DNA of 64,000 nucleotides, taken from an uncultured virus (IMG/VR IMGVR_UViG_3300026154_000024) (lineage: Duplodnaviria > Heunggongvirae > Uroviricota > Caudoviricetes). A model generated the notes under the pieces. The model searched no databases and was not told where the DNA came from. It saw only the letters and a program-made list of their open reading frames with translations. Location: IMG/VR virus record IMGVR_UViG_3300026154_000024, one strand, 5' to 3'. Of the stretch, positions 2,572 to 62,595 are shown in pieces. Within the stretch, counting starts at the first letter, position 1, and the number at the start of each line of letters is the position of its first letter. The translations under genes and the position numbers were made by a program.

Positions 2572-2572
2572 C

Positions 2573-24456: not shown

Positions 24457-24463
24457 AATTTGT

Positions 24464-28872: not shown

Positions 28873-28906
28873 AATCTTTCTTATTACTTAATGACGTTGT
28901 AATGAC

Positions 28907-29590: not shown

Positions 29591-29615
29591 ATCGGATAAG
29601 TTTTAAAAATTTGTA

Positions 29616-30233
29616 TTATATGTTTTTATATTCGTTAGTTGCATCGAATGACGGGCAAGCCTTGTTAGCAAAGTCACGATGACCATGTATCTTTGCAAAG
29701 GGGTATTTCTTGCGCAAATCCTTTAACAAAGAAAGCAAAGCAGCCTTTTGTGCGTCGGTTCTCGTGTCCTTTGGCGACGTGCCATCAGTCTTACACCCAC
29801 CGATATAGCACACGCCAATGGAATGTGCGTTATGGTTCGTGCAATGTGCGCCCACCAAATTAACGTCACGGCCATTATGTAGGCTACCGTCACGATAAAT
29901 CACATAGTGATAGCCAATATCATTAAAGCCACGTTGTTTGTGCCATTTTGTGATGTCGGCCACCGTATAGTCACGGCCTTCGCGTGTTGCACTACAATGT
30001 ACGATGATTTCATTGATGCGGCGCGAGGACGTTTTAAGTTTGTCAATATTACCAAGCAACTTAGCCCAAGTAGCATCGCCGACGATACCGTCTGCCTTTA
30101 AGCCGTTCTCACGTTGGAAATCACGTACTGCTTCCTCCGTAATGCGACCAAAGATGCCATCTTGTGCAAGATGCAATGCGGCTTGCAATTGTTTTACTGT
30201 CGCACCTTGACTACCATTCTTGATTGTTTCCAT
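29616..30233 (-). CDS. endolysin: peptidoglycan-binding domain + T7-type N-acetylmuramoyl-L-alanine amidase
   Basis: DGIFG/DGIVG..TW; IIVHCSAT, WH..RGF.DIGYHYVI, HGHRDFANKACPSF. Confidence 0.93.
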   Translation of the reverse strand: METIKNGSQGATVKQLQAALHLAQDGIFGRITEEAVRDFQRENGLKADGIVGDATWAKLLGNIDKLKTSSRRINEIIVHCSATREGRDYTVADITKWHKQRGFNDIGYHYVIYRDGSLHNGRDVNLVGAHCTNHNAHSIGVCYIGGCKTDGTSPKDTRTDAQKAALLSLLKDLRKKYPFAKIHGHRDFANKACPSFDATNEYKNI

Positions 30234-30270
30234 CTTTTTCTATATTTTGTGGTTCGTTATCGTCTTGTGT

Positions 30271-30717
30271 CTAAGAAGAGCTGTTGTCGTCGATGTTCTC
30301 CATTAAGCTAACTTTTTTTCGGTGTAGACAGCCCGCTACACCGCATAGGAAAGGGGAAAGGACATCAATACGACGGCCTAAACGTGATATGTCACGCTTA
30401 TAGTTCAAATCCATCTTTGTCATCTTTTCCTCTAGTTCTATGTATTTCGTGCGCATTTCGTGATTTCCCTTACGCAAATCATCTCTTTCGTCTTTGTATT
30501 GGTCACGTTCTGCGCGTACCTCATTCAGCGTCCGATTAACGTCCGCTAACGTGGTGTTGTAGTATTCTTGTGCCTCCTTGTTTGCTTGTGCCTCGGTTTG
30601 CTTTGCTTCACCGTTAGCCTTGCGTCGGCTTGCCCTCCAATGCAAGAACCATCCCCCACCAAGAAAGACGGTTACAAGCGTATTGATAGTATTGTAAATT
30701 TCCATATCCATAATCAC
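30271..30717 (-). CDS. TM + coiled-coil lysis-cassette protein (holin-like)
   Basis: N-terminal TM, coiled coil, directly upstream of endolysin. Confidence 0.5.
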   Translation of the reverse strand: MIMDMEIYNTINTLVTVFLGGGWFLHWRASRRKANGEAKQTEAQANKEAQEYYNTTLADVNRTLNEVRAERDQYKDERDDLRKGNHEMRTKYIELEEKMTKMDLNYKRDISRLGRRIDVLSPFLCGVAGCLHRKKVSLMENIDDNSSS

Positions 30718-30729
30718 CTCGCTTTCTTG

Positions 30730-32244
30730 TTAAGATAATCCAGTTTTAGCCTTGTTATCTACGATTTCGTCGCTACGGTTTACGCTAATGTTTTTTGCTT
30801 TATCCGCATTTTGTTGCATACCGTCCAAAGGAATAAGCGCACCACGTTCCTCGATGATACGCTCAACCTCATCTGGTGCTGCATCGGGCGACTTTTCGAT
30901 GACCGTTTTCATAGACAGCCATTGAGACTCCATAGACAAGTTCGTAATCTTGGTATTGTTGGTTTCCAATGACCAAGGCACGATTTCGGTTGCAATGTGA
31001 AGTTTTGAATATTTGTCAACACCATTGTTTTCGAGGTCAAGCCCTTCTTGGTGCAAATACACCATGTCATTGACAAACTTTTTCCAATCCTTTGCATTTT
31101 GGGTTGCCAAGGCATAGTCATTCGACATAGCAAGGGCAATACCATTACCGCCACTATTGGTAGCAGAGATGTCCTTTGGCGTGATGAAAGATGTGGACGA
31201 GAACAATGAAATCTTTTCCTCCAAAGTCTTTAGATAATCATTCATCGTTGTAGGCTCTGGCATCTTCAATACCTCGGCAGATTGCTTACCCCCCGTTGTA
31301 TCGCTTGAAAGGTTGATAATCAACGTAGAACTATCGCGCTTGAATGAATCGGCATCCATTTCACCTGTAAACACAAGAGCAAACGTACCAAAGCGTTTCA
31401 AGGCAATATTGTTGATATTCGCCATAAGTTCCCACATTTCGCATGAACTTTGTGCGTATTCCCAAGCAACCGTTTCGCGTCGGTGCAAAAGCGGACAACG
31501 TGAAAAGCCGTGTACTTCGCTTTGAATATTCCACGTCTTGCCGTCATCGGATGGTGTGCAACGGTAATGGTTTTTGTTATCGTATGTATCAATAATCGTC
31601 TTGCCGTCAAGTTGATACACCAAAGAACGTGCAACTTCAAAACCGTATTCGTCATAGTTAGGTACGATTTGATAGCCGTCACGATAACTATACGTTGTTA
31701 CGACCGTCTTTTCCGTTTCCTTGTCAAAACTAAACAAAAGGCCACAGTTACCAAGTTTCTTACAAATGCTGATAGCACGGGCGAGATGCCAATCAAGATT
31801 GCGTTGTTCCCATTCGTCTTTAACGGTTTCAAACGGGTCTATACCGCCATTCTTGGCATCGTTCTTACCAAGGGTAAACAACAACGGATTGGACGTAAGA
31901 GAACGGACATGAGCGGCGTGAATCAACTTTTGGAACGAGCACGTTTGGGTCATATCCATCATGCCAAAGTTCAACGGAGTACCGTCGATTTTAACTTTGA
32001 TGTGAGGGATTGACTCATTCAACAAAATGTGATGCAAGTCTGGCTTGTATTCCGTAATGTAGCGGTCTTGCGAAATAGGCGTAAGTTCAAGGTTTGCAAA
32101 GCCAGTATCAAGGATTGTGTTATTCAAGATAGGCTCGCCCTCGTAACCATGAGGCACCATTTTGCCGCCACGTGTAAAAGGCTTCATTTTCACAAGCCGA
32201 TTAGGGTCTTGAAGAAACCATTTTATGTCATGTAGTCTAATCAT
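30730..32244 (-). CDS. portal protein
   Basis: 504 aa, immediately after terminase; SGGNGIALA segment. Confidence 0.75.
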   Translation of the reverse strand: MIRLHDIKWFLQDPNRLVKMKPFTRGGKMVPHGYEGEPILNNTILDTGFANLELTPISQDRYITEYKPDLHHILLNESIPHIKVKIDGTPLNFGMMDMTQTCSFQKLIHAAHVRSLTSNPLLFTLGKNDAKNGGIDPFETVKDEWEQRNLDWHLARAISICKKLGNCGLLFSFDKETEKTVVTTYSYRDGYQIVPNYDEYGFEVARSLVYQLDGKTIIDTYDNKNHYRCTPSDDGKTWNIQSEVHGFSRCPLLHRRETVAWEYAQSSCEMWELMANINNIALKRFGTFALVFTGEMDADSFKRDSSTLIINLSSDTTGGKQSAEVLKMPEPTTMNDYLKTLEEKISLFSSTSFITPKDISATNSGGNGIALAMSNDYALATQNAKDWKKFVNDMVYLHQEGLDLENNGVDKYSKLHIATEIVPWSLETNNTKITNLSMESQWLSMKTVIEKSPDAAPDEVERIIEERGALIPLDGMQQNADKAKNISVNRSDEIVDNKAKTGLS

Positions 32245-32246
32245 CG

Positions 32247-34019
32247 TTATATCGTACTTAAAACATTTAATATTTCACTTGCGTTACGTATCTTCTTACG
32301 GTGTATTCGTGGGTCAACGTAGTTTTCATTCGTCACGTTAAGCATCGCCAACATATCCTCTGCTTGTAATTGCTTGCGGATTATTCCTGCGTCCTCTTTA
32401 AGCATTTTATGGCAATCGTAGATACTACCACCACAAAGCAATATGACGTTATCGAAAAGGTCGGGTGACATACCCTTTAGCAACGAGTGCATATCCTCTT
32501 TGTTCATCATCATTATGCGGCCATTGGGCGTTTTCTTGAATTGGAATATACGGCTTTCAAACACCATGTGCTTTAAGTAAGTCGTACCGCCCTCGCGTTT
32601 CATATTCTTATGATTGTAACGCGCATTGGCCAATTGCGTCTCGTAGTGAATCAAGCCCGATTGTATCATTTCCATTGCCACGTGTCCTGCCTCGTCTTTC
32701 AGCGTCCTAAATTGCGTCTTTCCGCGATTAGACGACGTTCCTGCGCCACTAAACAATATGGCACGTGGGAAACATTCTTTTAAGAAACCAAAACCTTGCA
32801 CGTCGATAATCATTTCCTTTTCTTGTAGGTTGTGTTTATCGCGGAAATTCATTGCCATCATAACGGCCTCGCGGTTGTTGTTCTCCATCGAGTAGCGAAT
32901 ATCACGGCAAATCCACCCGTAATGTGACCACAATTCCCAATATTTGAAAGTAAGATTATCGAAACCAGTAGTGGCCATATCCATTGTCATGCGGCGTTTC
33001 AAAAGTTCGCTATCACGCGGAATGTCTTTAGGTCTAAACATTCTTTCAACGTCCATTTTTGAAAGTTCCACGTTCACAAGGTCATCAATATTTTCTTCCT
33101 CGTCGTTAATCGAATAATTCCAATTGACTTGATAGGCAGATGCTGCGGTGGCACTATTAGCGGCCAAACCACGATAACCTTTATTCTTGGATAGCATTTT
33201 CTTGTTATCGCGCACATCAAATGTAAAGAAAGCCATTGAAAGGATGAAATCCTCGTATGTCATATCGGGGTCAACGGCCAAAAGCGAATCTATATGGTCT
33301 TTGCACTTTTCGTACACCTCGCGTTTTGTCCTACCCCAAACACATTTGTCAAGGTCGCCATTCGGCATACAAAAGAACATAACAACACCGTCCATCGACT
33401 TGTCAACAGTACCGTCATCGTTAATCCAACCGCCACCGTGCTCGCCTTTTCCACACATCTTACGCATGAAACATTCGCGCTCGGGGTTTTGTGCCAAATA
33501 TATTTGTGCCTTGCCGCTTGAATCACTACGCAAACGTGGGAAAAAAGCGGATATTGTGCGCCAAAGGAACTTATTGCACTCGTCAAAGATTAGTTTCTTT
33601 GCTTGCAAACCTTTGGCAATCTTATCAATAACAATAGGGTTCTCGTTGTCTAATTGTTGGAACTTTATCTCGCTACCGTTGTAAAGTTTCATACCCATAT
33701 CCGTTTGGTTACGGATTATTTCGCCTATCGGGTCATGTGGTTGTTTCTTTACGGAACGGTCAATAAGTGGGTACATTTTCTTTAGTGTGTCATTCACCTT
33801 ACCTGCGCCCCAAAAGTCCGATACGTTACGCATAAAGCAAACTATCTTGGCGTTATCGTTCATAGCAAGGTGTTCTATTGGCGCGTAATACAAAGCAACG
33901 GACTTACCGCCACCCGTACCGCCAGTAAAACATACAATGTCGGCATTAGAACGGATTGCAAGTCTTTGATTGCCGTCCTCTAATGGAGCCAGTACTATGT
34001 CATTACGCTTTCTCGCCAT
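32247..34019 (-). CDS. terL: terminase large subunit
   Basis: Walker A TGGTGGGKS, Walker B LIFDE, AQNP, nuclease MDMATTGFD and SPDLFD. Confidence 0.9.
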   Translation of the reverse strand: MARKRNDIVLAPLEDGNQRLAIRSNADIVCFTGGTGGGKSVALYYAPIEHLAMNDNAKIVCFMRNVSDFWGAGKVNDTLKKMYPLIDRSVKKQPHDPIGEIIRNQTDMGMKLYNGSEIKFQQLDNENPIVIDKIAKGLQAKKLIFDECNKFLWRTISAFFPRLRSDSSGKAQIYLAQNPERECFMRKMCGKGEHGGGWINDDGTVDKSMDGVVMFFCMPNGDLDKCVWGRTKREVYEKCKDHIDSLLAVDPDMTYEDFILSMAFFTFDVRDNKKMLSKNKGYRGLAANSATAASAYQVNWNYSINDEEENIDDLVNVELSKMDVERMFRPKDIPRDSELLKRRMTMDMATTGFDNLTFKYWELWSHYGWICRDIRYSMENNNREAVMMAMNFRDKHNLQEKEMIIDVQGFGFLKECFPRAILFSGAGTSSNRGKTQFRTLKDEAGHVAMEMIQSGLIHYETQLANARYNHKNMKREGGTTYLKHMVFESRIFQFKKTPNGRIMMMNKEDMHSLLKGMSPDLFDNVILLCGGSIYDCHKMLKEDAGIIRKQLQAEDMLAMLNVTNENYVDPRIHRKKIRNASEILNVLSTI

Positions 34020-45866: not shown

Positions 45867-45916
45867 ATTACTTAAAAGGTTTTGGGTATGTTTAGAATAT
45901 TATGTATCTTTGCAAT

Positions 45917-46010
45917 GTGGATAGGGTGGTTTGGCCACCATCTGATAAGGGGCAAGTCTGTCGCCCCTTCCACAATTTCAATGACAGACACGATTAAAAG
46001 AACAGACAAT
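45917..46010 (+). ncRNA. structured endonuclease-leader RNA, copy 3
   Basis: GTGGA-TAG-GGTGG/CCATC-TGAT-AAGGGGC(AAGTCTGTC)GCCCCTT-CCAC; loop pairs with GACAGAC 45983-45989 and ACAGAC 46002-46007. Confidence 0.8.
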
Positions 46011-46841
46011 ATGACAAAAATGAAACCTTTGGCACAAGTGCTCAAAGAATTTAGAGGCGTTCACGGTGATAGGTATAACTACAAGGAAGTCTACGAATCC
46101 AATTATCACGGCAATAAAACTGTTATTTCTGTAATATGCAGAGCACATGGGGCGTTTCCTATAAGTGTTGGGAATCATCTAATTGGTCAAGGATGTCCTG
46201 AATGTGCTAAGATAAAACGCAGAATAAGCAACACTGGCAATGTGCGCAAAAGAACCAAACTTGTGTACGGTGTTGGCGTAAACGATTATAAAGAAAACAC
46301 AAAATACAACCATGTACATATACCATCTTATCACACATGGGGGCAAATGCTAAAAAGGTGTTATTCAAAAGAATTTTTAGATAAACAAACGACTTATCGT
46401 GGATGTTCTGTTTGCGAGGAATGGTGGTCGTTCTCAAACTTTAAGAAGTGGTTTGACGAGAACTATATCGAAGGGTACAGTTTGGATAAGGATATTTTAT
46501 TTAAGGGGAATAAAATTTATTCACCAGAAACTTGATGTTTCGTACCTAACGAGATAAATGTTCTATTGTGTAAGAATGATTCAAAAAGAGGCAAAATGCC
46601 AATTGGTGTTTGCGAAAGGAAAATGGTTAATGGATATAAATACGTTGCATACGTCAACAATAGTACCAAAAAACATTTCCATCTTGGGACTTTTGACACT
46701 CCAGAAGAATCATTTTACGCCTACAAGGTTGAAAAAGAAGCGTACATTAAAGAGGTTGCGCAATCTTATTACAACAAAGGGCTTGTAACCGAAAGAGTTT
46801 ATAATGCGCTAATGAATTACAATGTTGAAATAACGGACTAA
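46011..46841 (+). pseudogene. homing-endonuclease-like gene, paralogue of 15985-16788, with in-frame TGA at 46533-46535
   Basis: YSPET*CFVPNEIN aligns to YSPSTCCMIPSEIN; frame continues to 46841. Confidence 0.8.
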
Positions 46842-49347: not shown

Positions 49348-49626
49348 TTATTTTTGATTATCCAATTCCATGATAGTTAGAATACAATAAACACTTGTAT
49401 CAAGAATTGTATCACGTAGGCTTTCGTTTTTGATATTCATTTTTTGCCCTTTGACTATATTCTTCATACGCTTAACCTTGTCGTTTATGCGTGCAACTGC
49501 TGGTATAAACCCAAACTCCTGTATTGTTTCAGCAAAACTATTTCCATAGTCGCTATTTTTCTTTTCATACGTTTCGCGCATTTCCAAAAGGATTTCGCTA
49601 AACTTATCAACATTACTACTTTCCAT
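49348..49626 (-). CDS. DUF1599 / nucleotide-modification-associated domain 1 protein
   Basis: YEKKNSDYGNSF, RINDKVKR, ESLRDTILD. Confidence 0.8.
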   Translation of the reverse strand: MESSNVDKFSEILLEMRETYEKKNSDYGNSFAETIQEFGFIPAVARINDKVKRMKNIVKGQKMNIKNESLRDTILDTSVYCILTIMELDNQK

Positions 49627-50709: not shown

Positions 50710-52836
50710 TCAAAACGGGGCTGCATCGTCCGACGGCGCACCAAACGGCATATCGTTGTTTGCATCGTCGTTACGGTAGTTCCAATCGGCATTATATGGC
50801 GGCTTTGGCGGTTCATCAAACGTCATGGTGCTTTGCGTAGGTTCTATTTCCCATCCATATTGCACGTTTTCGTTTACATCGTTCTTAAAACGGCGGCTTT
50901 CGATTTCATATTGCATACCTACCATCAAATCGACGATACCATACATGCGGTTCTTTGCCACCTCGATGACATTGCCGAAACCTTGGAAACGTTGTATTTC
51001 GCCTTTACCGAAAAATTCCGCACCAGCCCTAAAGAAGTCATTATTGACACGGTGGCAAATGAATATGTTATCCACAGCGTTCATCAAGTCACCACTACCG
51101 CTAATATCGTTCTTTCTAAGGAATGACATTGTTTTTCTTGGATGGGCAACCAATATGATATGCGCTTGGTTTTTCTTTGCAAAGTCTTTTATCTGCAAAA
51201 TCAACTCTTTTTGCTTGTTGTTTTTATCTCCCTCTAACAAGTCAATGTTAAGCGAGAAAAGATTATCCAACATGAAGATGCGACAACCAACTTTTAATAG
51301 TTCGTTCATGTCATGGAATATTTCTTGCCATGTATTGCCGTATTCATTATTGAACAAAAAGAATTTTCCGTCAATCCATTTGTCAATACGTTCTGCCGTT
51401 GCGTTGGGAACATAATATTTTCCGTCACCATAGTTTGATTGACGCAAATTATCCTTTCCTGCCGCAACCATTTGCACCCATGCTTTTAATATGTCAGGGC
51501 GCAATTCGCCAGACCACAAAGCGCATTTCCACCCTTGTTGAATAATGTTAAGCAATAGTGTATTTAGCCAAGACGATTTACCAGAACTGTTAGAACCACT
51601 AAGCAACGTCACCTCCGACATATTAAGGCCGATAATGCTTCTATCTAATTCGACAAATCCAGTCTTAACACATTCTATTTGCGACAAATCAATCTTTTGT
51701 ATATCGGACATACACAACCATTTCTTACCCAACTCTGGCAATTCCTCTTTTATGTTATATTTCGTTTGTGGTTGATATTGTCTTTGTTGATACGGTTGCA
51801 TATATTGTGGCGCATATTGCTGCCTTGGGGCATTTTCGTTATCGTATGCGTGTGGGTCGAAATGCAAGCGGAAAGCCCGCCAATCATATTGACTACAACT
51901 ATTATGATAGCACTTAAAAGCGATAGCACCATTAGGTAATTCAAACAAAGCAGAATCGGGGGCTTTATGTCCTTCATCAAACGGGCATTGCGCGAGAACA
52001 AACTTTTTACCACCACCACTTATAGGAACTTCTTTTGCGACTTGTATTCCGTACTTTTGAATAAACTCTCGCAAATTAAATTCCTCGTGATTTCCGTTGT
52101 TATTAAAGCGTCTTATTGGTTGTTCAACCTTAATTTTGTACTTTTCGTTGAAAGCCAAAATTTGTTCGATTTCCATTCGCGCAATTTCCTTCGGAACGGA
52201 TAGAATCTTTGCTAAACGGTGTGGGCGTTCATCGGTTGAGCGTCCTTTGCGTCCAAACGTGCCTGAAAGTCTTAGTATTCGGTTTGCGTCATGTAATACG
52301 GTATCAATCTTTACGCTCTCATCCGTAAAGTTGTTAGCAAGAATTTCAAGAAAAGTCTTTATGCAATCTTCGCTTTCTTGCGTATTATCCATATCAATAG
52401 GGTAAAGCAAATGATAGCCACTTGACGAATCGCATACGATTGGCGTGCTAAATCCATTGTCGCGCAAGAACATGAAAACGTCTTGTGCTTTCTTGTGCGC
52501 ATTTTCCTTTTCAGTATTGGTAGAACTTACACCACTTGGGCGTTCACAATCCACGTCAATAGGTAGCCACCAACGATGTTCAATATCTTGCTTGCTTGTG
52601 GCAGTACCTTTCACTTGCTTAAAGCAATTGAATTGTTCTCGGCTTGCACACGCTTTCTTTACTTCATTGATAGAGTAGTATATATTGGCATTATCGAACG
52701 GTTCAAGTGCCTTTATTGCGGTTTCTACGTCATAGAAATAACCGCTCCAAGTTCTATCACCCAATATGCGTATTTCAAACAATTCATCCTTACGTTTGAA
52801 AGTGTTATGCCATTTTCTTATTTCGTTAGCGTCCAT
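50710..52836 (-). CDS. primase-helicase (AEP-like primase + zinc finger + SF4 helicase)
   Basis: IDVD, SSSGYHL, RILRLSGT; CPF..H..C.H.SC; SGSNSSGKS, MLDNL, LVAHPRK, ISGSGD. Confidence 0.88.
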   Translation of the reverse strand: MDANEIRKWHNTFKRKDELFEIRILGDRTWSGYFYDVETAIKALEPFDNANIYYSINEVKKACASREQFNCFKQVKGTATSKQDIEHRWWLPIDVDCERPSGVSSTNTEKENAHKKAQDVFMFLRDNGFSTPIVCDSSSGYHLLYPIDMDNTQESEDCIKTFLEILANNFTDESVKIDTVLHDANRILRLSGTFGRKGRSTDERPHRLAKILSVPKEIARMEIEQILAFNEKYKIKVEQPIRRFNNNGNHEEFNLREFIQKYGIQVAKEVPISGGGKKFVLAQCPFDEGHKAPDSALFELPNGAIAFKCYHNSCSQYDWRAFRLHFDPHAYDNENAPRQQYAPQYMQPYQQRQYQPQTKYNIKEELPELGKKWLCMSDIQKIDLSQIECVKTGFVELDRSIIGLNMSEVTLLSGSNSSGKSSWLNTLLLNIIQQGWKCALWSGELRPDILKAWVQMVAAGKDNLRQSNYGDGKYYVPNATAERIDKWIDGKFFLFNNEYGNTWQEIFHDMNELLKVGCRIFMLDNLFSLNIDLLEGDKNNKQKELILQIKDFAKKNQAHIILVAHPRKTMSFLRKNDISGSGDLMNAVDNIFICHRVNNDFFRAGAEFFGKGEIQRFQGFGNVIEVAKNRMYGIVDLMVGMQYEIESRRFKNDVNENVQYGWEIEPTQSTMTFDEPPKPPYNADWNYRNDDANNDMPFGAPSDDAAPF

Positions 52837-52843: not shown

Positions 52844-53452
52844 TTATCTTATATATTCAAACGTAAATCCATCTTTATTCGTCACTTTTCCTTTTAAGTA
52901 TTTATTGACTACGCCTTGAGTGTAACCAAGGTATCGTTCAGCATCCCGTTGGCTTGAAAATTTCTTAAAAAATATTCCGTTTTTATAAACGTTTATTGGT
53001 GTTGCATTTATTTTTTTAATGTTATCTATTTTCAATTGCATTAAAACAGGGTTGGTTCTTAAAGACATTTGTATTCCTTTACTTATATTTTTTCGTGCAA
53101 GTGGAAAGTTTGAATTTTCCTTGTTAGTACACCATCTTAGATTTTCAACACGATTGTCCGCACGCACACCGTTAATGTGGTCAATTGCATTTTTGCCATT
53201 TACCCTTTCTATAAAAGTTTCGGCTACGATTCGATGTACTAATACTGTCGCACCTTTGCCTTCCTTTTTGTTACAAAAATGCGTTGTTAAATATCCGTCT
53301 TTATTTTGATGTAACCTTTTAATATTCCCTCTTACAATTCGCAACGCACCTCTATTTGTGCGAACATATCTATCAATAGAACGAACATTACCAAGGTTGC
53401 TTACTTGATAGCAACCCTCCCAACCTTTTGCGTCTTTCCAAATTTCATTCAT
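52844..53452 (-). CDS. NUMOD4-HNH homing endonuclease (no RNA leader)
   Basis: EIWKD..GWEGCYQVSNLGNVRS; VHRIVAETF; IDHING.RADNRVENLRW. Confidence 0.9.
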   Translation of the reverse strand: MNEIWKDAKGWEGCYQVSNLGNVRSIDRYVRTNRGALRIVRGNIKRLHQNKDGYLTTHFCNKKEGKGATVLVHRIVAETFIERVNGKNAIDHINGVRADNRVENLRWCTNKENSNFPLARKNISKGIQMSLRTNPVLMQLKIDNIKKINATPINVYKNGIFFKKFSSQRDAERYLGYTQGVVNKYLKGKVTNKDGFTFEYIR

Positions 53453-54080
53453 TTGTTTTCCTCCATTCTTTTGTTTCTGCATCCCACGATATAACACCCC
53501 TACCATTGTTAAGCGTTACACTTGCACCGTCGGGGCGCGTGTCATCGTCGTAGCCGTCGGGAATGTGCTTGCCATCCCAATAGCCGACATACATATAGCA
53601 ATTATAGTATTCGTTCCAAGAAAGCGCACCATCACACATAGGTATGTAAACATTACTTTGTACCTCGCCGCGCCCAAGTTTCGACGGGTCATAAACGACA
53701 TTGTTGTTTCCGAATACGACGGTCATAAATATCTTATCGCGCAAATAACGTTCAAAGTCCTTTTGATATAGCAATTCACGGGTAGATACATACGCCTTGA
53801 TATGCGGCATCACATTTTGTTTCTCGACATCTGTAAGTTTCTTCCAATATTCCAAGGATTTCTTCTTGCTACCCTTGCGATTGTATGCTACCCAACATTC
53901 CTCGAACAGTTCCTTTCGCGGAGCGTCGGTACGAAGGAAATCCACTATTTCTACCATGACATCATACGGCACTGGGTCTGTGAAACAAATATCTTTTTCA
54001 CCAACCTCAACAAAACGAATATCATGCTTTTTGAGCAACTTTTCGATTTGTTCCCTTTGTTCAATAACTTTCAATTGCAT
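53445..54080 (-). CDS. replication-initiator C-terminal-like protein
   Basis: FEECWVAYNRKGSKKKS...WKKL..YQKDFERYL; upstream of primase-helicase. Confidence 0.55.
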   Translation of the reverse strand: MQLKVIEQREQIEKLLKKHDIRFVEVGEKDICFTDPVPYDVMVEIVDFLRTDAPRKELFEECWVAYNRKGSKKKSLEYWKKLTDVEKQNVMPHIKAYVSTRELLYQKDFERYLRDKIFMTVVFGNNNVVYDPSKLGRGEVQSNVYIPMCDGALSWNEYYNCYMYVGYWDGKHIPDGYDDDTRPDGASVTLNNGRGVISWDAETKEWRKTNE

Positions 54081-54100
54081 AATCTTTGTTGTTTAATATG

Positions 54101-55015
54101 TTAGAACAAACTTAATTGTATTGGTTCTTTCTTTTCTTTTAACTGCTCATTATCTGGCTTACGCCAATCTTCACGAATAATCTTAGGTACTGCATTTTCC
54201 CAAGAAACGCTGTGGTGCATACGCTTATGAAACTGCCCCATTTCACCTACCTTAACGCAAGACGGATTTGTAAGTACACTAAAGAACGATTTTACGTATG
54301 TACCATTTTCTTGATACATTTCAGTAAGTCCTCCTCCAGCCTTTTGTGTTACAGTTTGACGTAACGAACAGTCTGCCACGGTCATAAACAATGTTCCACG
54401 ACTCCCTTCTAATAAGTACGTATTTACATCATCGTTCATTCGGCCTATAAAGTGAAATGGTCTGTCAGTCTTGCAAAAAAACGCATTCATTATCTTCCTA
54501 TGCACACGCTCGCGATACATCGTACTTCCAAGACCTCCAATAAAGTCTCCATTTTGAGCAAATGCAACACATGTCGCACCTGATGTTTCCAAGAACTCCA
54601 ACATTTCATTTATTATTGCGTTCATCTTCTTTACATACACTTGCGACAAAGTACCATTCTTTTCAATTCGTGAAGAAAAAGCATCATAGTCATCATCAAG
54701 TTCAAGAAAATAGGTAAGGCCAAGTTCTTTTGCTATTTCAAAACAAGATTCACGTGCATATAAAACTGCATTTCTTTTACGTGGTATATCGCACGTTTCG
54801 CATTCCAAAGACTTCTTCAACTTGTCAAACACAACAATATGTTCTTCACCAAACACAGTCTTGTATTCCTCTTGTTGGTCATCTTCGTTGTCAATAATGA
54901 TATAATACTTTCCAGTATAACCACAATCCAAAAGTTCTTTCACAGTCTTTACCCCATGAGCCCTACCATGAGACAAAATAAGACAAGCAAAGTCATCTCT
55001 TATTTCGTTATTCAT
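54101..55015 (-). CDS. TET-associated (TAGT)/GREB1-like GT-A glycosyltransferase
   Basis: ILSHGRA, YFLELDDDY, GRMNDDVNTY, Q..GGGLTEMY, R.HH...W. Confidence 0.8.
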   Translation of the reverse strand: MNNEIRDDFACLILSHGRAHGVKTVKELLDCGYTGKYYIIIDNEDDQQEEYKTVFGEEHIVVFDKLKKSLECETCDIPRKRNAVLYARESCFEIAKELGLTYFLELDDDYDAFSSRIEKNGTLSQVYVKKMNAIINEMLEFLETSGATCVAFAQNGDFIGGLGSTMYRERVHRKIMNAFFCKTDRPFHFIGRMNDDVNTYLLEGSRGTLFMTVADCSLRQTVTQKAGGGLTEMYQENGTYVKSFFSVLTNPSCVKVGEMGQFHKRMHHSVSWENAVPKIIREDWRKPDNEQLKEKKEPIQLSLF

Positions 55016-55707
55016 AATCTTATGTTTTTTAATTCTTCTTTTGTGTTAAATGACTTTATAGCAATATCTTCAAATGGTAAAAGTGCAACTTCAATATTAG
55101 TTTCGTTCACCACATCAAGGAATTGCATTTCATTGTTATGCTTGTGAGTATATTCGTAAGTATTTGTGTCGAATGTCTTTGTGTGAAATTCGTTCAAATA
55201 ATAACGAATATATCTTAAATACCCAAAGAAAACACCAAAGTCGTGAAATCCATCTCCTTTAACCTCTCCATACTTTTTGAACTCAACTTTTACGCTGTTG
55301 TCGTTTTTAACGAGCCTTACGTATGGGTCGTGCTCAAAAGCACATGGTATTACAAGATATCTGCAATGTTCAAACTTGCTTTTTGTTTCTTTCAAAACTT
55401 CATCACAAAGCACACAATCGCCCCAAGCAATAAATACGTGGTCTGAATAGTTTGACGGTATTTGACTTAATGCTTGTAATACGGCATTGCCACAACCATA
55501 CCCACTTTTTATTGTAATGGTTTCGTAGTGTTCAAACCAATCCTTGTTTTGCTGAGAACAAACTACATAAACCTCATCACAATACATTGATAGGCATGCG
55601 ATGTTGTAATCAAGCAAACATACATCTCCAATCATCGACAATGCTTTGGGTCTTTCATCGTCAAAGCGTGTTTCTTTTCCTGCGCTAAAAATCAAGCCTG
55701 TTGTCAT
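55012..55707 (-). CDS. NTP-transferase (sugar/alcohol-phosphate nucleotidyltransferase)
   Basis: LIFSAGKETRF...PKAL, IAWGDC, SFNTKEEL. Confidence 0.85.
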   Translation of the reverse strand: MTTGLIFSAGKETRFDDERPKALSMIGDVCLLDYNIACLSMYCDEVYVVCSQQNKDWFEHYETITIKSGYGCGNAVLQALSQIPSNYSDHVFIAWGDCVLCDEVLKETKSKFEHCRYLVIPCAFEHDPYVRLVKNDNSVKVEFKKYGEVKGDGFHDFGVFFGYLRYIRYYLNEFHTKTFDTNTYEYTHKHNNEMQFLDVVNETNIEVALLPFEDIAIKSFNTKEELKNIRL

Positions 55708-55708
55708 G

Positions 55709-57382
55709 TTACAATACTTTTAGAATTATATTCGTTTCAATAACGTTTGCTACACGTATGTATTTGGCACAAGCATGGGCAATTTCGTAATCATTGCCAT
55801 AATCTTCTGTTTCGTCACCTATATAAAGGCAATCTTTTGGGTTTATATGATAAGCCTTAAAAATGTTTGCCTTGCTATTATTGCTTGCTACAATGTCAAT
55901 CGTTGTACGGCCAGCAGAAATGGCTTTCAATCCTTTTATTCCATAAGCCTTAAACATATATACATTAAGATATTGTAGCAACATACGACGTTCCAAAGCG
56001 GTAAATGGTTTCATTTTGTAACAAGACATAAAATCTTCGTTATTAGGTTTGCCATCAATGCCAAAACTATTATATAGACTTTTTTCGACAAATGATATTG
56101 CTTTCTTGTTTATCAAGTGTTTGCGAATAACAAATTTCTTATTCCCATCAACATATAACACAGAAGACGCATCTGCCCAAACATTGTTATGTATATTATA
56201 ACAACTATCCAATATTGGCTTGATTGCTGTTTTATAGTCATTGCCAGAAACAATTTGTATGTTCGGCCTTTGTGATATTGCTCTTATATTTTCATAAGAT
56301 ATTCTCACATTGTCTTTTGAATATATAGTGTTATCAAAATCCATCAACACGTGCTTATATGGCATTGTCCTCAAATGAAAGAACTCTTTGAATATTGCTT
56401 TAGCCAACAATAGAGGTTCGTGTTTCCCCTTGTTGTTTCCCATTGGATAATATGCCACGTCATATTTTGTGGACTGTTGGCATAGAATTGGGTCTGCATC
56501 CACGTTTTCTAAAACCACGAACTTTGACATATCAAGACCAAGATTAGACACGATGCTTATAAAATGATTGCTACCTATCCCTCTTGCATCTTTATCTTGT
56601 GTGCTATTCATTACCCAAATCTTAAAGGCTTTTGATTTGTTGATTGCGCGATAAAGACCACCGTATTCCAAAGTTGGATATATTGAACTCCAAAACGTAC
56701 CACAAGATATTATTATCATGTCAGCATCTTGCAATTCTTCAACTACAATAGGATTTATTGTGATAGGAGCATCCGAGTTATACAACAAACTTTCAATCCT
56801 ATCTTCATCGTTATCAAAACCGACAATGCTTGATTCGTCAACGAGAATAGAATTGTGGGTTTTTGCGCTCAGTTTTACGTTTTCAAACGAATTAAGGAGC
56901 ACGTTGTTCGGAATATCGAACTTTGTGCATATTATTTCATTGGTTGCCTCGTACCCCAACTCTTTATACATGGAAGAATACACAATATTAGCAATGGGAA
57001 AATCTTCAAATACTTTTTCTTTTGCACTTGGTGTTTCAAAGAAAGTCTTTGCCCATATATCAAAACACGACAATCCCCATTCATGCAATTTAGATACAAC
57101 AAACTCGTATTCCTCGCCTTTTGGTAAGTCAAAACGTTCATCAAAAAACGAAACGATATTGCCATTCAAACTTGCATTGTGAAATATCTTGTAGATGCGA
57201 GCATGATTTTTGCGTATATCGCTTACTCCTAATGTGTTGGTCAACGTGCGACAAAGACCTGTTGATTTTCCATCATCATAAGCATTAACGACAACCTTCA
57301 AGTCGATAGTTGGATAAAGGCCATATATACCCTTCAATAAGGCGTCATTGCCAGACCCTCCACTTAATATGATTGCTTTCAT
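55709..57382 (-). CDS. CofD/YvcK-like transferase fused to Cof-type HAD phosphatase/phosphomutase
   Basis: ILSGGSG, VVNAYDDGKSTG, GVSDIRK, ADMIIISCGTFWSSIYP; HAD VLMDFDNT, IVSG, GRTTIDI...SK, YIGDE...GNDYEI. Confidence 0.85.
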   Translation of the reverse strand: MKAIILSGGSGNDALLKGIYGLYPTIDLKVVVNAYDDGKSTGLCRTLTNTLGVSDIRKNHARIYKIFHNASLNGNIVSFFDERFDLPKGEEYEFVVSKLHEWGLSCFDIWAKTFFETPSAKEKVFEDFPIANIVYSSMYKELGYEATNEIICTKFDIPNNVLLNSFENVKLSAKTHNSILVDESSIVGFDNDEDRIESLLYNSDAPITINPIVVEELQDADMIIISCGTFWSSIYPTLEYGGLYRAINKSKAFKIWVMNSTQDKDARGIGSNHFISIVSNLGLDMSKFVVLENVDADPILCQQSTKYDVAYYPMGNNKGKHEPLLLAKAIFKEFFHLRTMPYKHVLMDFDNTIYSKDNVRISYENIRAISQRPNIQIVSGNDYKTAIKPILDSCYNIHNNVWADASSVLYVDGNKKFVIRKHLINKKAISFVEKSLYNSFGIDGKPNNEDFMSCYKMKPFTALERRMLLQYLNVYMFKAYGIKGLKAISAGRTTIDIVASNNSKANIFKAYHINPKDCLYIGDETEDYGNDYEIAHACAKYIRVANVIETNIILKVL

Positions 57383-57384
57383 AA

Positions 57385-57843
57385 TTACTCCTCCTGCTTG
57401 TTTTCGTTATTCTTTGTATTGCGCCATTGATTTGAGTATTCGTCAGACGCCCAACGGCCTGTTGTACGTTGTATTTGTTCAATGTTTTGCGACAACTTAA
57501 CGTAACCATACTCAATAGCCTTATTGAAATCTATAATCACAAGAGCACTTTTTTCCATAAGACGTTGCATTTCCTTGCTTGCATGGGCATAGTAATCTGC
57601 AATTTTGGAATATCTAAAAACAATATGACGTGATGCCGCAAGTTTCAAAAAGTTCTTTTCTTGCTCGCTTACATCAGATGCTTCAATTTGTCTCATCAAA
57701 GCATTATACTTTGTCTTGTCATAAAGTTCACCAACGAAAGGACACTTTTCGCTTGGGGTGTATATTGGAGCACCCACCTTGTCTGTATAACGTTCATCTT
57801 TTTCTATTTGAACGTCATCAAAAACAAATAAATCTTGTTGCAT
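57385..57843 (-). CDS. conserved phage protein of the type usually adjacent to TAGT glycosyltransferases
   Basis: YT.K...PIY.P, FLKLAASRHIVF.YSKIADYYAHA, SALVIIDFNKAIE.GYV. Confidence 0.65.
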   Translation of the reverse strand: MQQDLFVFDDVQIEKDERYTDKVGAPIYTPSEKCPFVGELYDKTKYNALMRQIEASDVSEQEKNFLKLAASRHIVFRYSKIADYYAHASKEMQRLMEKSALVIIDFNKAIEYGYVKLSQNIEQIQRTTGRWASDEYSNQWRNTKNNENKQEE

Positions 57844-57848
57844 ATAAA

Positions 57849-58187
57849 TTACTTTATTTTTCTTTCCTGTTTATCTTTCAAAAGCAACGCATCAAGTTTG
57901 AGATAAGTACCAAGACGGGGCAAGTGGCGTATTCGGGAAAAGTCATCGTCATCGACACTTTGCCGATACGACTTGCCCAACATCTTCGGTATATCGGTTC
58001 TCGTGACACGTTCATCATTACAAAGCCTTGACAACATTTCAACCTCCTTTTCGTTGCCTCGCACTCGTGCCGACGGTTAGCCTTAATGGTTTCATCCACC
58101 CAAGGCAAAAGGCCGTGCTTTTTCTGCCATGTAGCGCAAGCGTGAAAGATATTCACGGCAAAGGGATTGTAATACGTCTTTAGCCAT
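57849..58187 (-). pseudogene. hypothetical protein split by two compensating 1-nt indels
   Basis: MAKDVLQSLCREYLSRLRYMAEK / HGLLPWVDETIKANRRHECEA / EKEVEMLSRL... Confidence 0.5.
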
Positions 58188-58196
58188 AGTAACACG

Positions 58197-58577
58197 TTAG
58201 AATGGTAGATTATCAGACCCGTCGCCGTCACCGCCGTTATTTTCGGGCAAAGGGTTTTGAGCGGTCTGTGTAGCGGCTTGTTGCGTTTGTTCTTGCGTAC
58301 CATCCAACCGTTGCGTTCTCCACGCTTGACATTCCGTGAACCATTTGCCTTGCCATTCGCGGCTTTCCACGTCAAATGAAACGTTGTAAGTACCGCCCAT
58401 GACGATGCCCATCTGCTTGAACTTATCCTCGCCCATTACTTTCATGGCCACTTTCTTAGGATATTGACCTTGAGTCTCGATGACAAACACTGTAGTCACA
58501 TATTCGTTTCCGTTCTTTTGAGAAACAAATCTTTGTGGCTCTAAAATTGCAATTACTTTACCTGTAATATCACTCAT
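58197..58577 (-). CDS. DUF3127 SSB-like protein
   Basis: ITGKVIAIL, QYPKKVA, VSFDVESREWQGKWFT..AWR, DNLPF. Confidence 0.85.
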   Translation of the reverse strand: MSDITGKVIAILEPQRFVSQKNGNEYVTTVFVIETQGQYPKKVAMKVMGEDKFKQMGIVMGGTYNVSFDVESREWQGKWFTECQAWRTQRLDGTQEQTQQAATQTAQNPLPENNGGDGDGSDNLPF

Positions 58578-58581
58578 AATT

Positions 58582-59196
58582 TTAATTATTTTGTTTATTA
58601 AACATAAATTCTTCTTTATAAAACCCACAAAAACCGTAACTTTTCCACTTTTTACCTCTTTCTTTGTTTTTTCGCATTATTGAACGGATTGTTTCTGGAC
58701 GAACACCAATAGCCCTTGCGCCATCTGCAATAGATTTGTATTCAGCAACAATGTTCATTTTTTCATCGAGACATAAAACTTCTTTTTCTGCACAAAAACG
58801 TCCTCTTTTTTTCATTGTTCTCAAGAACCTTTCGGTTGAATGGTTTTGTTTACAAGTTTTACGATAACGCTCAAGTCTTGTTCCATAATTTGTATTATAA
58901 CTATACGTACACCATTCCAAATTGTTTACACAATTATTTAATGGGTTTTCGTCCTTGTGATTAATTATCGGTAAATTTTTAGTGTTTGACACAAATGCCT
59001 CTGCAACCAGACGGTGTATTTGAAAGGATTTTTGCTTTCCATTCTTGACCAAATTAATGTGTAAGTAACCTTTTCCAAATTTTGTTGGTTTAAGTTGTTT
59101 AAATGAGCCGTCCGACCTTTTTATTCGCACATCGCCATAATTGCTTATTTGATAATTTTTATCAAACCCATCTATGTCTTTCCAAATTTCTTCCAT
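58582..59196 (-). CDS. NUMOD4-HNH homing endonuclease with NUMOD1-like C-term
   Basis: EIWKDI.GF..NYQISNYG; IHRLVAEAF; INHKDENPLNN.VNNLEW. Confidence 0.9.
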   Translation of the reverse strand: MEEIWKDIDGFDKNYQISNYGDVRIKRSDGSFKQLKPTKFGKGYLHINLVKNGKQKSFQIHRLVAEAFVSNTKNLPIINHKDENPLNNCVNNLEWCTYSYNTNYGTRLERYRKTCKQNHSTERFLRTMKKRGRFCAEKEVLCLDEKMNIVAEYKSIADGARAIGVRPETIRSIMRKNKERGKKWKSYGFCGFYKEEFMFNKQNN

Positions 59197-59941: not shown

Positions 59942-60532
59942 TTAGTATTTCTTGCCATGTTTCTTTGGTCTTGTTTCGTTATATTCCATTTTTAGTTCGA
60001 TATGGCGTATAAAGTCCACATTCATGTCCTCGGCCATAGCAAAAAGAAATAACAGTGCCGCACCGATAATATCGGGTAGGCTTTTGCCGCTACCGTCATC
60101 CGTCACGCTTGCGCCGTCGGCATGGCAAAGGATAGCGGAAAGGACGAATGCACGTTCACAAAAAGAGTGCCGTTGATAGTTCTTTCGGAAATCCTTAAAG
60201 AGTTCGCGGCACGATTCGAAGCGGTCGGTAGGTGTGATGTTCAATGTTCCGCAAAGGTCGAAAAGGCGAATGGCTACGTCGGCCATTTCATCCTCAACGC
60301 TATCCTTCACATAGTTCTTGAAACGGTCATTGTACGTCAAGCCCTTGCAAATTTCAAAACCGTGCAAATAGGCATGTAGGTTACGACGGTCGGCCTCGAC
60401 GGCCTCGCCTATCTCCGACAGCACCAGCATCATCATGTGCTCGACGGTCAACATCTTTTCGTGAAATCCGTGCTTAACGGCAATATCGTATGCACGGGCA
60501 ATGAAATCCTTTGTTTGTTCCTTTGTAATCAT
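59942..60532 (-). CDS. MazG-like all-alpha NTP pyrophosphohydrolase
   Basis: LVLSEIGEAVEADR, VEDEMADVAIRLFD, KMEYNETRP..HGKKY. Confidence 0.8.
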   Translation of the reverse strand: MITKEQTKDFIARAYDIAVKHGFHEKMLTVEHMMMLVLSEIGEAVEADRRNLHAYLHGFEICKGLTYNDRFKNYVKDSVEDEMADVAIRLFDLCGTLNITPTDRFESCRELFKDFRKNYQRHSFCERAFVLSAILCHADGASVTDDGSGKSLPDIIGAALLFLFAMAEDMNVDFIRHIELKMEYNETRPKKHGKKY

Positions 60533-60545: not shown

Positions 60546-61013
60546 TTAGTTTTGTGAATTTATAGTAACTACGGTTTCGGTTTTCGGATGGTGTTGCACC
60601 CAATAGACACCGTGCTTCTTTTTCAACGATTTTTTGAGTTTACGCGGTATGCGACGAGTAACACGCAAGCGTTCCGAAATTTTTGCATTGGGGATTATAA
60701 GTTCATTTCCGCGTCTATCTTGCACCTTAACGTCAAAAACTGGGCTTGCATCAAACAAATCGGTCAAGAAACCGTCATCTTTCGTCTTTTCGATGTCAAT
60801 ATCAATGGAAACATTAACGTCCCAATGGCGCGTGAAACGTGGCAATTCGTTTTTGTGGCCGTAAATTCTCGAAATCCGCAACCTCGAACTGCAAGTCAGG
60901 CACATTGCCATCCGAGATTGATGTCTTTGCTTGCAAAAACGACGCACCAAAGAAAATAACTGGCTTTTATCCCACTTGATTTCATCCACTAACTTAGAAA
61001 CCACATTTGCCAT
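60546..61013 (-). CDS. hypothetical basic protein
   Basis: ORF after promoter 61099-61106; RRIPRKLKK. Confidence 0.6.
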   Translation of the reverse strand: MANVVSKLVDEIKWDKSQLFSLVRRFCKQRHQSRMAMCLTCSSRLRISRIYGHKNELPRFTRHWDVNVSIDIDIEKTKDDGFLTDLFDASPVFDVKVQDRRGNELIIPNAKISERLRVTRRIPRKLKKSLKKKHGVYWVQHHPKTETVVTINSQN

Positions 61014-61860
61014 AAATAACTTTCTTTTATTTATATAAGTAACTATTTTAATTGGTATTCCATGTATATAGATAACCATAATAACACGAAACACGGCGCA
61101 AAGATAAATATATTATTTTGAATAATTGCAAAACAAATCCATATTTAACACTACTTTAACATAATAAGGGTAACTTATTAAAAATAGTAAATACTATATA
61201 TAAAGATTACTATATATAATATAAGTAACTATATATATAAAGTAAACTATATGTAATATCGCTTACCATATTTTCGTATAATGGTAAACTATATATTATC
61301 CAACACACACAAAACATACTTTTTTAAAGACCTTTGGCAACCAAATACTAAATAATTTGATTTAAGCCGCTTTTTAAGCCCTACAAGGCACTTTTATACC
61401 ATAAGTGGACTAATTACCCACCGACATAAAAACAACGCCTTAAAACGGCCTTAAAATCGTTTTTTTCAAAATTTTCGAATTTTTCTTTTTTAAAAAATTT
61501 TTTTCAGAAATAAGGTGTTTGCACCACACAATACTTTGGCCGTTTTACCCCCCCCTCCCCCTATAAAATTGCGTAAATCGTTGAAAATCAAGCCGTTATG
61601 ATTTTGAAACGTTCATTTTATTACCATACGATGTATAAATTCTATCTTTTCCCGCTGTAACACATTGAATGAGATTACAATACACAAAATACTCGAATGA
61701 AATTTTTGGCACAAAACAAAGTATATTTTTATATATATTTTGCGTTCTATATAATCATACCGTGAAAGCAAAAGAAAAGGTCTATAAAAGAAAATATAAT
61801 ATAAATATAAATATAATATATATATATATAATATAAGAAAAAGAAAAAAGAAAAAGAAAA

Positions 61861-61876
61861 TGTTTCACGTGGAACA
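61861..61876. promoter_or_regulatory. parS site
   Basis: TGTTTCACGTGGAACA = reverse complement TGTTCCACGTGAAACA, the canonical chromosomal parS. Confidence 0.8.
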
Positions 61877-61924
61877 TATATTAAGTGTATTATTTACATT
61901 TAATGTTTCACGCTTATTTAGAAT

Positions 61925-62236
61925 TGTGTGCGTACACAAATCGTTTTGTTTTTCCTTTTGTATAATTACGCCAAACAACTTGGGAAAGCACGGCAGCGGG
62001 CTTGTAAGTAGCGTTCTCGGCAATATTTTATTTTGTCTATAATTACGCTCGTATCATATATTATATAAAAAAGACCATGTTAAAATGTTTAAGTTAAAAA
62101 GTATTTAGAAATTACAATGTTTTTGTATTGTGTGCGTACACATGTAAAAAAGTATTTCATTTTGGGCTTTCAAGTGTAAACAAATCTTTAATCATCATGT
62201 TAATAAACATTTATTTTGTTATTGTGTTCGCACACA
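61925..62236. repeat. three copies of a 14-bp near-palindrome TGTGTGCGTACACA (operator-like)
   Basis: 61925-61938, 62129-62142, inverted 1-mismatch copy 62223-62236. Confidence 0.7.
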
Positions 62237-62302
62237 AAGTTAAAAGTGTTTCATTTCGTTAAAAACATTTTTTTATATCAATTTTTCGACGTATCTTTGC
62301 AT

Positions 62303-62595
62303 CGTGTTAAGATAGAACGGCATCGAACATAGCGCAGAAACTTAACACCGAGCGCGGAGGCAGCACCTCGTTAGGGAGGGAGCGATAAGCGATGCCGAAG
62401 CCAACGTCAGCAGGTTTACTTGTTTTTCCTGCAAAACGACTCGGGCAACAGCGAAGTGGGATAGATAGCTGACCAAACAGAAAACATTGATTCGTTTTTT
62501 TGTTTTGTATAGTATATAAACGGACACAATGAAAGTGATAGGGCAGACCTTCATTCGTTCAGGCTGGTGAGTTTTGCGACGTTCTATCCAGCACT
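62303..62595 (+). ncRNA. candidate structured leader / ncRNA
   Basis: starts after promoter 62292-62299; several long-range complementary segments. Confidence 0.5.

Follow-up and report, generated by a model that had tools for sequence, protein, structure and literature searches.

Four tightly coupled genes on the minus strand of an uncultured tailed virus (Caudoviricetes; IMG/VR record IMGVR_UViG_3300026154_000024) encode a predicted DNA glycosyltransferase together with proteins that may supply its sugar. We analysed them in a stretch of 64,000 nucleotides, here called the window. A preliminary description, made from the sequence alone, had placed the quartet between a DUF3127 gene, which resembles single-stranded DNA-binding proteins (SSB), and the replication genes; open reading frames (ORFs) occupy exactly that span. 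Read along the minus strand, they are g1, a small protein; g2, a fusion of a CofD/YvcK superfamily domain to a HAD domain; g3, a nucleotidyltransferase; and g4, a glycosyltransferase of the TAGT family. Two nucleotides separate g1 from g2 and one separates g2 from g3, while g3 and g4 overlap by four, ATGA. Between 53300 and 58800 there are no terminator-like sites (shuffled sequence gives 3.7), and a promoter scan stayed at chance level, with 19 found against 19.0 ± 4.1 in shuffles.

The cassette appears to be built from two units. One is a widespread phage pair, g1 and TAGT; the other, set between g1 and g4, would be a pair that supplies the sugar donor. Here we describe the four proteins, the genes with which each unit travels and the site at which the cassette is inserted, and we weigh what the glycosyltransferase may act upon.

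Folds and motifs of the four proteins

The product of g4 matches the TAGT family (PF20691) with 120.7 bits against a cut-off of 27.5, covering positions 4-205 of the 205 in the Pfam profile, and it matches phrog_842 at E 4.9e-67 in PHROGs. Its DxD motif is DDD at residues 107-109, and D107-D108-D109 is invariant in 7/7 aligned TAGTs. For the TAGT of phage T6 a GT-A fold has been reported, and the family enzyme of T2 and T6 glucosylates glucosyl-hydroxymethylcytosine borne on DNA (PMC13216743, in part). According to the same part of that paper, 288/753 phage genomes hold solitary TAGT genes, whose function is described there as 'yet to be defined'. A tblastn search with g4 matched 36 phage records, none of them T-even (0/36); the E. 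coli phages among the matches carry a ParB-like gene paired with TAGT.

For g3, Pfam reports NTP_transf_3 at E 8.8e-10. The predicted structure (pLDDT 93.7) lies nearest to the uridyltransferase domain of GlmU (7kr9; TMq 0.79, E 1.3e-13, Foldseek). Further neighbours are RmlA, IPCT, LicC and other sugar-1-phosphate nucleotidyltransferases; neither CofC nor FbiD is among the structural matches listed. The signature GxGxR...K is present, with G10, R14 and K21 invariant in 19/19 sequences. On sequence and model together we assign g3 as a sugar-1-phosphate nucleotidylyltransferase of the GlmU N-domain type. It does not have the acetyltransferase half of GlmU.

The fusion protein g2 matches Pfam CofD over residues 4-294 (E 1.7e-22) and HAD weakly. 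Its structure, predicted from a 22-sequence alignment, has a pLDDT of 91.3. Foldseek ranks five YvcK/UPF0052 structures at the top for the N-terminal domain (TMt 0.66-0.79), with 2hzb as the best superposition (E 5e-14, TMt 0.79), and FbiA only 42nd; the UPF0052 matches 2hzb, 2o2z, 2ppv and 2q7x span E 5e-14 to 1e-10. GGG and DDG..R motifs in this domain are invariant in 22/22 sequences. Because g2 falls below both curated NCBIfam cut-offs (YvcK TIGR01826, 62.1 bits against 196; CofD TIGR01819, 21.9 against 257.45), its N-terminal domain is best placed in a separate clade of the CofD/YvcK superfamily. The C-terminal domain gives profile matches to 7myv (2.9e-8) and 4bnd (1e-7), and Foldseek agrees. 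D348 and D350 of the HAD nucleophile motif DxD are invariant, and a residue-level alignment to 4bnd and PMM2 finds the motif GDxTxxxGNDxE common to PMM2 and alpha-phosphoglucomutase. We assign this domain, again from alignments and a predicted fold, as a HAD of the phosphomannomutase (PMM)/alpha-phosphoglucomutase type. The domain calls first made for g2, g3 and g4 hold.

What is g1? In Pfam it has no match even at E <= 1, and hence none to the ParB N-terminal nucleotide-binding domain (ParB_N); the ESM Atlas offers no usable match. In PHROGs it matches phrog_620 ('ParB-like') at E 9.8e-8, solely over positions 148-216 of 217, the C-terminal third. The small protein had been called conserved, and so it proves: 1218 cluster representatives match g1 at E <= 0.001. 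In most of them the match is the C-terminus of a protein of 240-300 amino acids (aa), and the full-length relatives in two loci (L006 and L038) carry ParB_N. From these alignments we assign g1 as the stand-alone C-terminal domain of ParB-like phage proteins, without ParB_N.

Gene associations and the insertion site

A scan for the g1 domain found more than 550 viral loci; figures given per 80 rest on the 80 most similar. TAGT is present in 79/80, the sole miss stopping at a contig end, and in 70/80 it lies no more than 300 bp downstream of the g1 domain. The preliminary description had proposed a neighbourhood survey for the whole quartet. What recurs is the g1-TAGT pair; a donor pair of the g2+g3 type stands between the two in only 3/80. 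Clustering all ORFs of the 80 loci revealed no third common gene. The next commonest neighbours are DNA polymerase (23/80), a DnaN-like clamp (18/80) and a replicative helicase (14/80), and the DnaN-like gene is directly downstream of TAGT in 18/80. The g4 search tells of the same partnership: a ParB-like gene overlaps the match start in 13 of the 30 tblastn rows listed, and in three GenBank phage regions that we inspected the order is ParB-like, TAGT, terminase. For solitary TAGT genes g1 is an obligate companion on the upstream side, a link that goes beyond the preliminary description. We also considered that g1 might be a generic ParB remnant of the phage backbone. This is ruled out: g1 is no backbone gene, it has no homologue in the sister phage G006 described below, and it is tied to TAGT.

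The N-terminus of g1 in the window reads MQQDLF. Stand-alone g1 forms often start in this manner, with Q(x1-3)[LMI]F, a pattern that resembles the consensus of the bacterial clamp-binding motif. It occurs in 9/28 anchored short g1 forms and in 0/84 ParB-fused forms. The motif gives slight reason to suppose that TAGT is tethered to the replisome by g1, for which the phage's own DnaN-like sliding clamp may be the docking site.

The donor pair keeps other company. A profile scan of viral contigs and GenBank phages yielded 19 loci with a g2 relative, or 20 when L038, a phage contig in a metagenome-assembled genome (MAG), is added. A g3 relative adjoins the g2 relative in 16/19 phage loci, and two of the three misses stop at a contig or record end. 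The neighbour is TAGT in 5/20 loci and a gene like the beta-glucosyltransferase (beta-GT) of T4 in 10/20, seven of which also hold a thymidylate-synthase homologue, so that a DNA-type glycosyltransferase stands beside the pair in 15/20. In another 4/20 the neighbours are a DpdA/TGT-like gene, a YhhQ-like transporter, a short-chain dehydrogenase/reductase (SDR) and a 297-aa protein; 1/20 has no recognised glycosyltransferase. One locus rearranges the domains. In L010 (3924-6288) the HAD is joined to the nucleotidyltransferase, which leaves the CofD-like domain as a separate protein; immediately upstream are a T4 beta-GT-like gene and a fusion of a kinase to thymidylate synthase. This swap indicates that the CofD-like, HAD and nucleotidyltransferase domains are tied to one pathway.

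Two arrangements in other phages deserve mention in their own right. In large phages (L005 6100-12411, L008, L012 and L016) the YhhQ-like, DpdA/TGT-like (phrog_887), SDR and conserved 297-aa genes precede the g2+g3 pair, which hints that the pair is linked there to 7-deazaguanine-type DNA modification. The 297-aa neighbour in L005, L008 and L012 was tried as a hidden TAGT and ruled out, the profile-profile probability being 0.5% and no PDB sequence matching. In L015 (8874-17265) the donor pair and a beta-GT-like gene come before a GT1 gene, itself interrupted by an intein-like element, and a GT2 gene stands last; the group may serve to modify DNA with several sugars.

Bacteria possess the pair as well. 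On bacterial and MAG contigs the nucleotidyltransferase adjoins the full-length fusion in 34/34 full-length loci. Nine such loci were annotated; eight are bacterial, all of them in glycan or natural-product contexts. Their neighbours include membrane-type GT2 enzymes (L027, L032, L034), a GT8-ABC transporter (L022), TagF-like, flippase and LicD genes (L042, L048), GT4 genes and a polyketide synthase cluster with a GT28-type enzyme. Taken with the phage loci, these contexts suggest that the donor pair is a module of general use for supplying activated sugar, which phages have borrowed; in the cassette it is an add-on that bacteria also use for envelope glycans, a point likewise absent from the preliminary description. 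On an Anaerocolumna chromosome (L082 7998-11604), a CofD-like gene that stands alone, a HAD_2 gene and a GT28/UDPGT-type glycosyltransferase gene lie within a polyketide synthase cluster, where the same donor logic seems to serve natural-product glycosylation.

The site of the cassette was examined in related phages. A terminase scan found 13 records of the lineage, eight of them at least 97% complete (77-88 kb) and three with terminal repeats. TAGT and CofD are each found in 0/13, and the cassette block is absent from 13/13. Closest among the records is G006, which is collinear with the window and shares 97% identity with it in the terminase. At the cassette site G006 carries a 334-aa gene without assignment and a ParB-associated N6/N4 DNA methyltransferase (phrog_498). 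A comparison of the site in nine lineage members found the cassette in two (the window and L154), an empty site in two (L155, L156) and DNA methyltransferase cargo in five (L153, L157, L158, L159, L160). The gene content of the inserted block is g1-g4 only. Its GC content also sets it apart: g1-g4 stand at 0.359, the window at 0.407 and the structural block (18826-34019) at 0.428. This bears out the earlier remark that the middle genes look richer in AT than the structural genes, and it fits recent acquisition. A DNA search of 50,697 phage records with the cassette returned only a 59-nt match. The four genes are a horizontally acquired cassette at a site for DNA-modification cargo, where the module swaps places with DNA methyltransferases, as expected of an anti-restriction mark.

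Two of the nine members, L158 (8802-9575) and L159 (6841-7614), have at this site a conserved protein of 257 aa that is followed by two DNA methyltransferases. Among the relatives of this protein just one is annotated, a cyanophage 'pyridoxal-phosphate dependent enzyme' with 27% identity.

Table 1. Positions of the cassette genes, their domains and other features in the window
Feature	Position	Strand	Assignment or basis
g1	57385-57843	minus	152-aa ORF; no Pfam family, C-terminal phrog_620 match
g2	55709-57382	minus	557-aa ORF; CofD and weak HAD match (Pfam)
g2 N-terminal domain, about residues 1-335	56378-57382	minus	CofD superfamily, YvcK/UPF0052-like fold
g2 C-terminal domain, about residues 336-557 and stop codon	55709-56377	minus	HAD, phosphomannomutase/alpha-phosphoglucomutase type
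g3	55012-55707	minus	231-aa ORF; NTP_transf_3 (Pfam)
g4	54101-55015	minus	304-aa ORF; TAGT PF20691
Inserted block: g1-g4 and divergent 5' part of replication-initiator gene	53915-57844		Absent from sister phage G006; blastn synteny, tblastn, GC
Replication-initiator-like gene, backbone flank	53445-54080	minus	Residues 58-208 conserved in sister phages
Primase/helicase gene, flank	50710-52836		Pfam/PHROGs
71-aa ORF and DUF3127 SSB-like gene, backbone flank	57849-58628	minus	Pfam, PHROGs, tblastn
DUF3127 SSB gene	58197-58628		Flank on g1 side
Phage DnaN-like sliding clamp	12515-13762	plus	Pfam and PHROGs

Several features of the window lie outside the cassette. A MazG-like gene (59942-60532) was considered as a cassette-linked dNTP cleaner and ruled out, being a backbone gene present in sister phages; it has no informative PDB relative. 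Another backbone gene (49348-49626, minus strand) belongs to DUF1599, 'nucleotide modification associated domain 1', and is likewise present in cassette-free sister phages. Genes for a clamp, a primase/helicase and SSBs and RecE/RecT-like genes are present in the phage (whole window and L149, which is G006 1-20000); neither the window nor the extra 16 kb of G006 yielded a DNA polymerase family. A 1401-aa ORF on the plus strand (7775-11980) combines helicase-like and N6/N4 DNA-methylase parts and is broken up by intein-like elements (LAGLIDADG, Hint, Intein_splicing). HNH/NUMOD homing-endonuclease genes are unusually many (4455-5304, 15847-16788, 45882-46841, 52844-53506 and 58582-59196), and several of them fall in stretches unmatched in G006. 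The window begins with a fragment of a TnpB/Cas12f-like transposase (16-561, plus strand), followed by an RtcB RNA ligase gene (1429-2571, plus strand) in a stretch, 1426-2570, without a blastn match in G006. The interval 61001-62000 is very AT-rich (GC 0.269) and is bracketed by the matches to the two ends of the G006 record (60971-61271 and 62052-62311); a genome end or a replication or packaging site may lie there.

The predicted sugar, its acceptor and its target

What might the cassette do? On balance we lean towards glycosylation of the phage's own DNA, with an NDP-hexose (nucleoside diphosphate sugar) that the phage itself makes, as a defence against restriction. The HAD of g2 would convert hexose-6-phosphate to hexose-1-phosphate, and g3 would join the latter to a nucleoside triphosphate to give an NDP-hexose or NDP-hexosamine. 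The YvcK-like domain of g2 would bind this nucleotide sugar or help to process it. g4, with its DxD motif, would then move the sugar from the donor onto phage DNA. The dedicated partner g1 would probably bring g4 to the DNA by way of the replisome clamp, as the ParB N-domain does in the fused relatives. The sugar mark would shield phage DNA from host restriction, as the DNA methyltransferases at the same insertion site do in the sister phages. The hypermodification cassette with its own donor pathway proposed at the outset draws support from context, namely the methyltransferase cargo site and the DNA-type glycosyltransferases beside the donor pair.

Which position on the DNA would receive the sugar? 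Phage glycosyltransferases are known to place hexose, N-acetylhexosamine or heptose on 5-hydroxymethylcytosine (5hmC) (bioRxiv 2023.12.21.572611, in part). The enzymes that make such precursors were sought at three levels. In the window, the 64 ORFs contain no Tet_JBP, C5-methyltransferase or thymidylate-synthase family at E <= 0.001-0.01; tblastn in every frame found nothing with six phage thymidylate-synthase homologues (best E 0.06) or with beta-GT and DpdA-like queries. The initial observation that the window lacks TET/JBP, C5-methyltransferase and hydroxymethylase genes thus stands. Among the 13 lineage records, thymidylate synthase and Tet_JBP are each 0/13, and among 37 records that carry g1-TAGT (14 of them at least 90% complete) Tet_JBP is 0/37 and thymidylate synthase above cut-off 0/37, the Tet_JBP counts coming from searches without a positive control. 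The part of G006 that corresponds to DNA beyond the window (2158-18167) holds recombination and other genes but no polymerase and no nucleotide metabolism, and neither Pfam nor PHROGs finds a dioxygenase or hydroxymethylase gene there. With the same proviso about Tet_JBP, these counts strengthen the suggestion that the acceptor may be new.

A more specific proposal seems to us doubtful. The g1-domain/TAGT system might be self-sufficient, needing no hydroxymethyl-pyrimidine precursor: tethered to replisome or packaging, it would put the sugar directly on a canonical base or another position in DNA. g1 would then be a DNA- or clamp-targeting subunit or one that presents the acceptor, and the YvcK-like/PMM fusion, acting with the GlmU-like enzyme, would give phages a way to an NDP-sugar that has not been described before.

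Several points weigh against DNA glycosylation as we picture it. To our knowledge, canonical DNA offers no obvious hydroxyl acceptor. The window is about 80% of the phage genome, with some 16 kb outside it. The Tet_JBP negatives are uncontrolled, and 5-17% of the contigs retrieved by phage dioxygenase profiles carry no PF12851 annotation (PMC13229309, in part). The clamp motif is short and its count small. In bacteria the donor pair sits in envelope-glycan or teichoic-acid-like loci. Finally, the animal TAGT-domain protein GREB1 O-GlcNAcylates a protein (PMC7968844, in part).

The last two points, together with the failure to find a hydroxylated-base pathway in the lineage or in the module carriers, are what an alternative target would lead one to expect: the phage-made NDP-sugar might go to a virion or host protein, or to a host envelope polymer, for example in a block to superinfection. 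We think this unlikely. The site is one that the cassette shares with DNA methyltransferases, relatives of g1 are fused to ParB N-domains, and the core pair lies among polymerase, clamp and helicase genes or just ahead of terminase. In other phages the donor pair has T4 beta-GT-like genes and thymidylate-synthase homologues for neighbours. Nor did g1-g4 show features of membrane proteins or of secretion, for which no dedicated search was made. Less likely still is chemistry in the style of CofC and CofD, the route by which an NDP-alcohol and a phosphodiester had first been suggested: g3 would activate a phospho-compound, the CofD-like domain of g2 would transfer it through a phosphodiester onto DNA or a DNA-borne sugar, and TAGT would add or receive a sugar. 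A CofD-superfamily domain is indeed always paired here with a MobA-like nucleotidyltransferase, as in CofC/CofD, and the invariant GGG and DDG..R suggest an active site in an N-terminal domain whose role is otherwise unexplained. That domain, however, folds like YvcK/UPF0052, with FbiA far down the list, and scores a small fraction of the CofD equivalog cut-off; g3 is nearest to GlmU and RmlA-type folds, and the HAD of g2 is of the mutase type. The combination of YvcK-like fold, PMM-type HAD and GlmU-like g3 points instead to an ordinary NDP-hexose, and the phosphodiester proposal is not favoured. A full-text literature search found no paper tying CofD or YvcK to phage DNA modification.

The alternative to which we give least credence is a standard glycosylation system whose acceptor is ordinary 5-hydroxymethyluracil (5hmU) or 5hmC; its source would be a divergent dioxygenase or hydroxymethylase, either encoded in the 16 kb beyond the window or missed by Pfam. 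The uncontrolled Tet_JBP searches and the annotation gaps just cited leave room for it. Phage thymine dioxygenases, moreover, act post-replicatively, some of them needing ParB-like activators, and their neighbourhoods often hold glycosyltransferases, ParBs and terminases (PMC13229309, in part). Against this stand the absence of Tet_JBP from all lineage and carrier records, the lack of such a gene in the G006 equivalent of the 16 kb, the want of a third conserved gene in the 80 loci and an inserted block that consists of g1-g4 alone.

The locus bears on several wider questions. Solitary TAGTs are common and of undefined function (PMC13216743, in part), and this locus adds to them an obligate small partner and a setting among replication and packaging genes. 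A recurrent three-domain donor module (YvcK-like, PMM-type HAD, GlmU-like) lies beside two unrelated families of DNA glycosyltransferase in phages. Should the acceptor prove to be none of 5hmC, 5hmU and 5-hydroxycytosine, this would be a new kind of DNA modification, of interest for phage therapy, for restriction evasion and for the labelling of DNA by enzymes. The question can be tested directly in E. coli phages that carry the ParB-like/TAGT pair.

Comparison with known systems

The founding phage member of the TAGT family is the beta-glucosyl-HMC-alpha-glucosyltransferase of T2 and T6, with which g4 has PF20691, phrog_842 and the DxD motif in common. That enzyme acts on phage DNA after replication (PMC13216743, in part). 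It extends a glucose already bound to 5hmC and so requires dCMP hydroxymethylase and an alpha-glucosyltransferase (alpha-GT), neither of which was found in this window. g4 does not look like its orthologue: no thymidylate-synthase-like or beta-GT-like sequence turned up in any frame of the window, the count in the lineage records is 0/13, g4 has an obligate g1-domain partner, and T-even phages are missing from its 36 tblastn records. The family takes its name from a link to TET/JBP that does not define it; no such link was found in the window, the 13 lineage records or the 37 carriers, in searches that had no positive control. The locus is closer to the solitary phage TAGTs, which likewise have neither alpha-GT nor beta-GT (PMC13216743, in part). 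In their nearest cultured representatives the order is ParB-like, TAGT, terminase, whereas here the ParB N-domain is gone and donor genes lie between the partner and TAGT.

The donor pair recalls the arabinose pathway of phages RB69, DLP3 and HY126, in which a sugar phosphate is likewise diverted, through a HAD and a nucleotidyltransferase, to an NDP-sugar for DNA glycosyltransferases (PMC13326640, in part). Its enzymes are an arabinose-5-phosphate isomerase, a fusion of a kinase to a nucleotidyltransferase and a HAD phosphatase, and its acceptor is 5-hydroxycytosine made by a thymidylate-synthase homologue (PMC13326640, in part). The cassette has a YvcK-like/PMM-type fusion instead, and the window ORFs contain no such isomerase, kinase domain or thymidylate-synthase homologue.

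In bacteria, YvcK (GlmR) together with GlmM and GlmU serves the supply of UDP-N-acetylglucosamine. The cassette presents a parallel set of domains, in which the YvcK-like domain is accompanied by a putative hexose-phosphate mutase and by a uridyltransferase domain like that of GlmU. The parallel has its limits, since g2 misses the YvcK cut-off, its putative mutase is of the HAD/PMM type and not GlmM, and g3 is only the uridyltransferase half. With CofC/CofD of F420 biosynthesis, g2 shares a superfamily and the pairing with a MobA-like enzyme; it fails as a CofD equivalog, and the nearest folds are YvcK and GlmU. The pneumococcal Gtp1-3 pathway to CDP-2-glycerol was considered as a possible analogue and dropped; PMC1391919 does not say to which family Gtp3 belongs.

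The ParB-dependent thymine dioxygenases and ParB-methyltransferase fusions are unlike this cassette in three ways: its enzyme is a glycosyltransferase, searches turned up no dioxygenase, and g1 retains just the C-terminal domain. They nevertheless follow the same plan, a ParB-type partner beside a post-replicative DNA-modifying enzyme near terminase (PMC13229309, in part). In the sister phage G006 it is a ParB-methyltransferase, of phrog_498, that occupies the site of the cassette.

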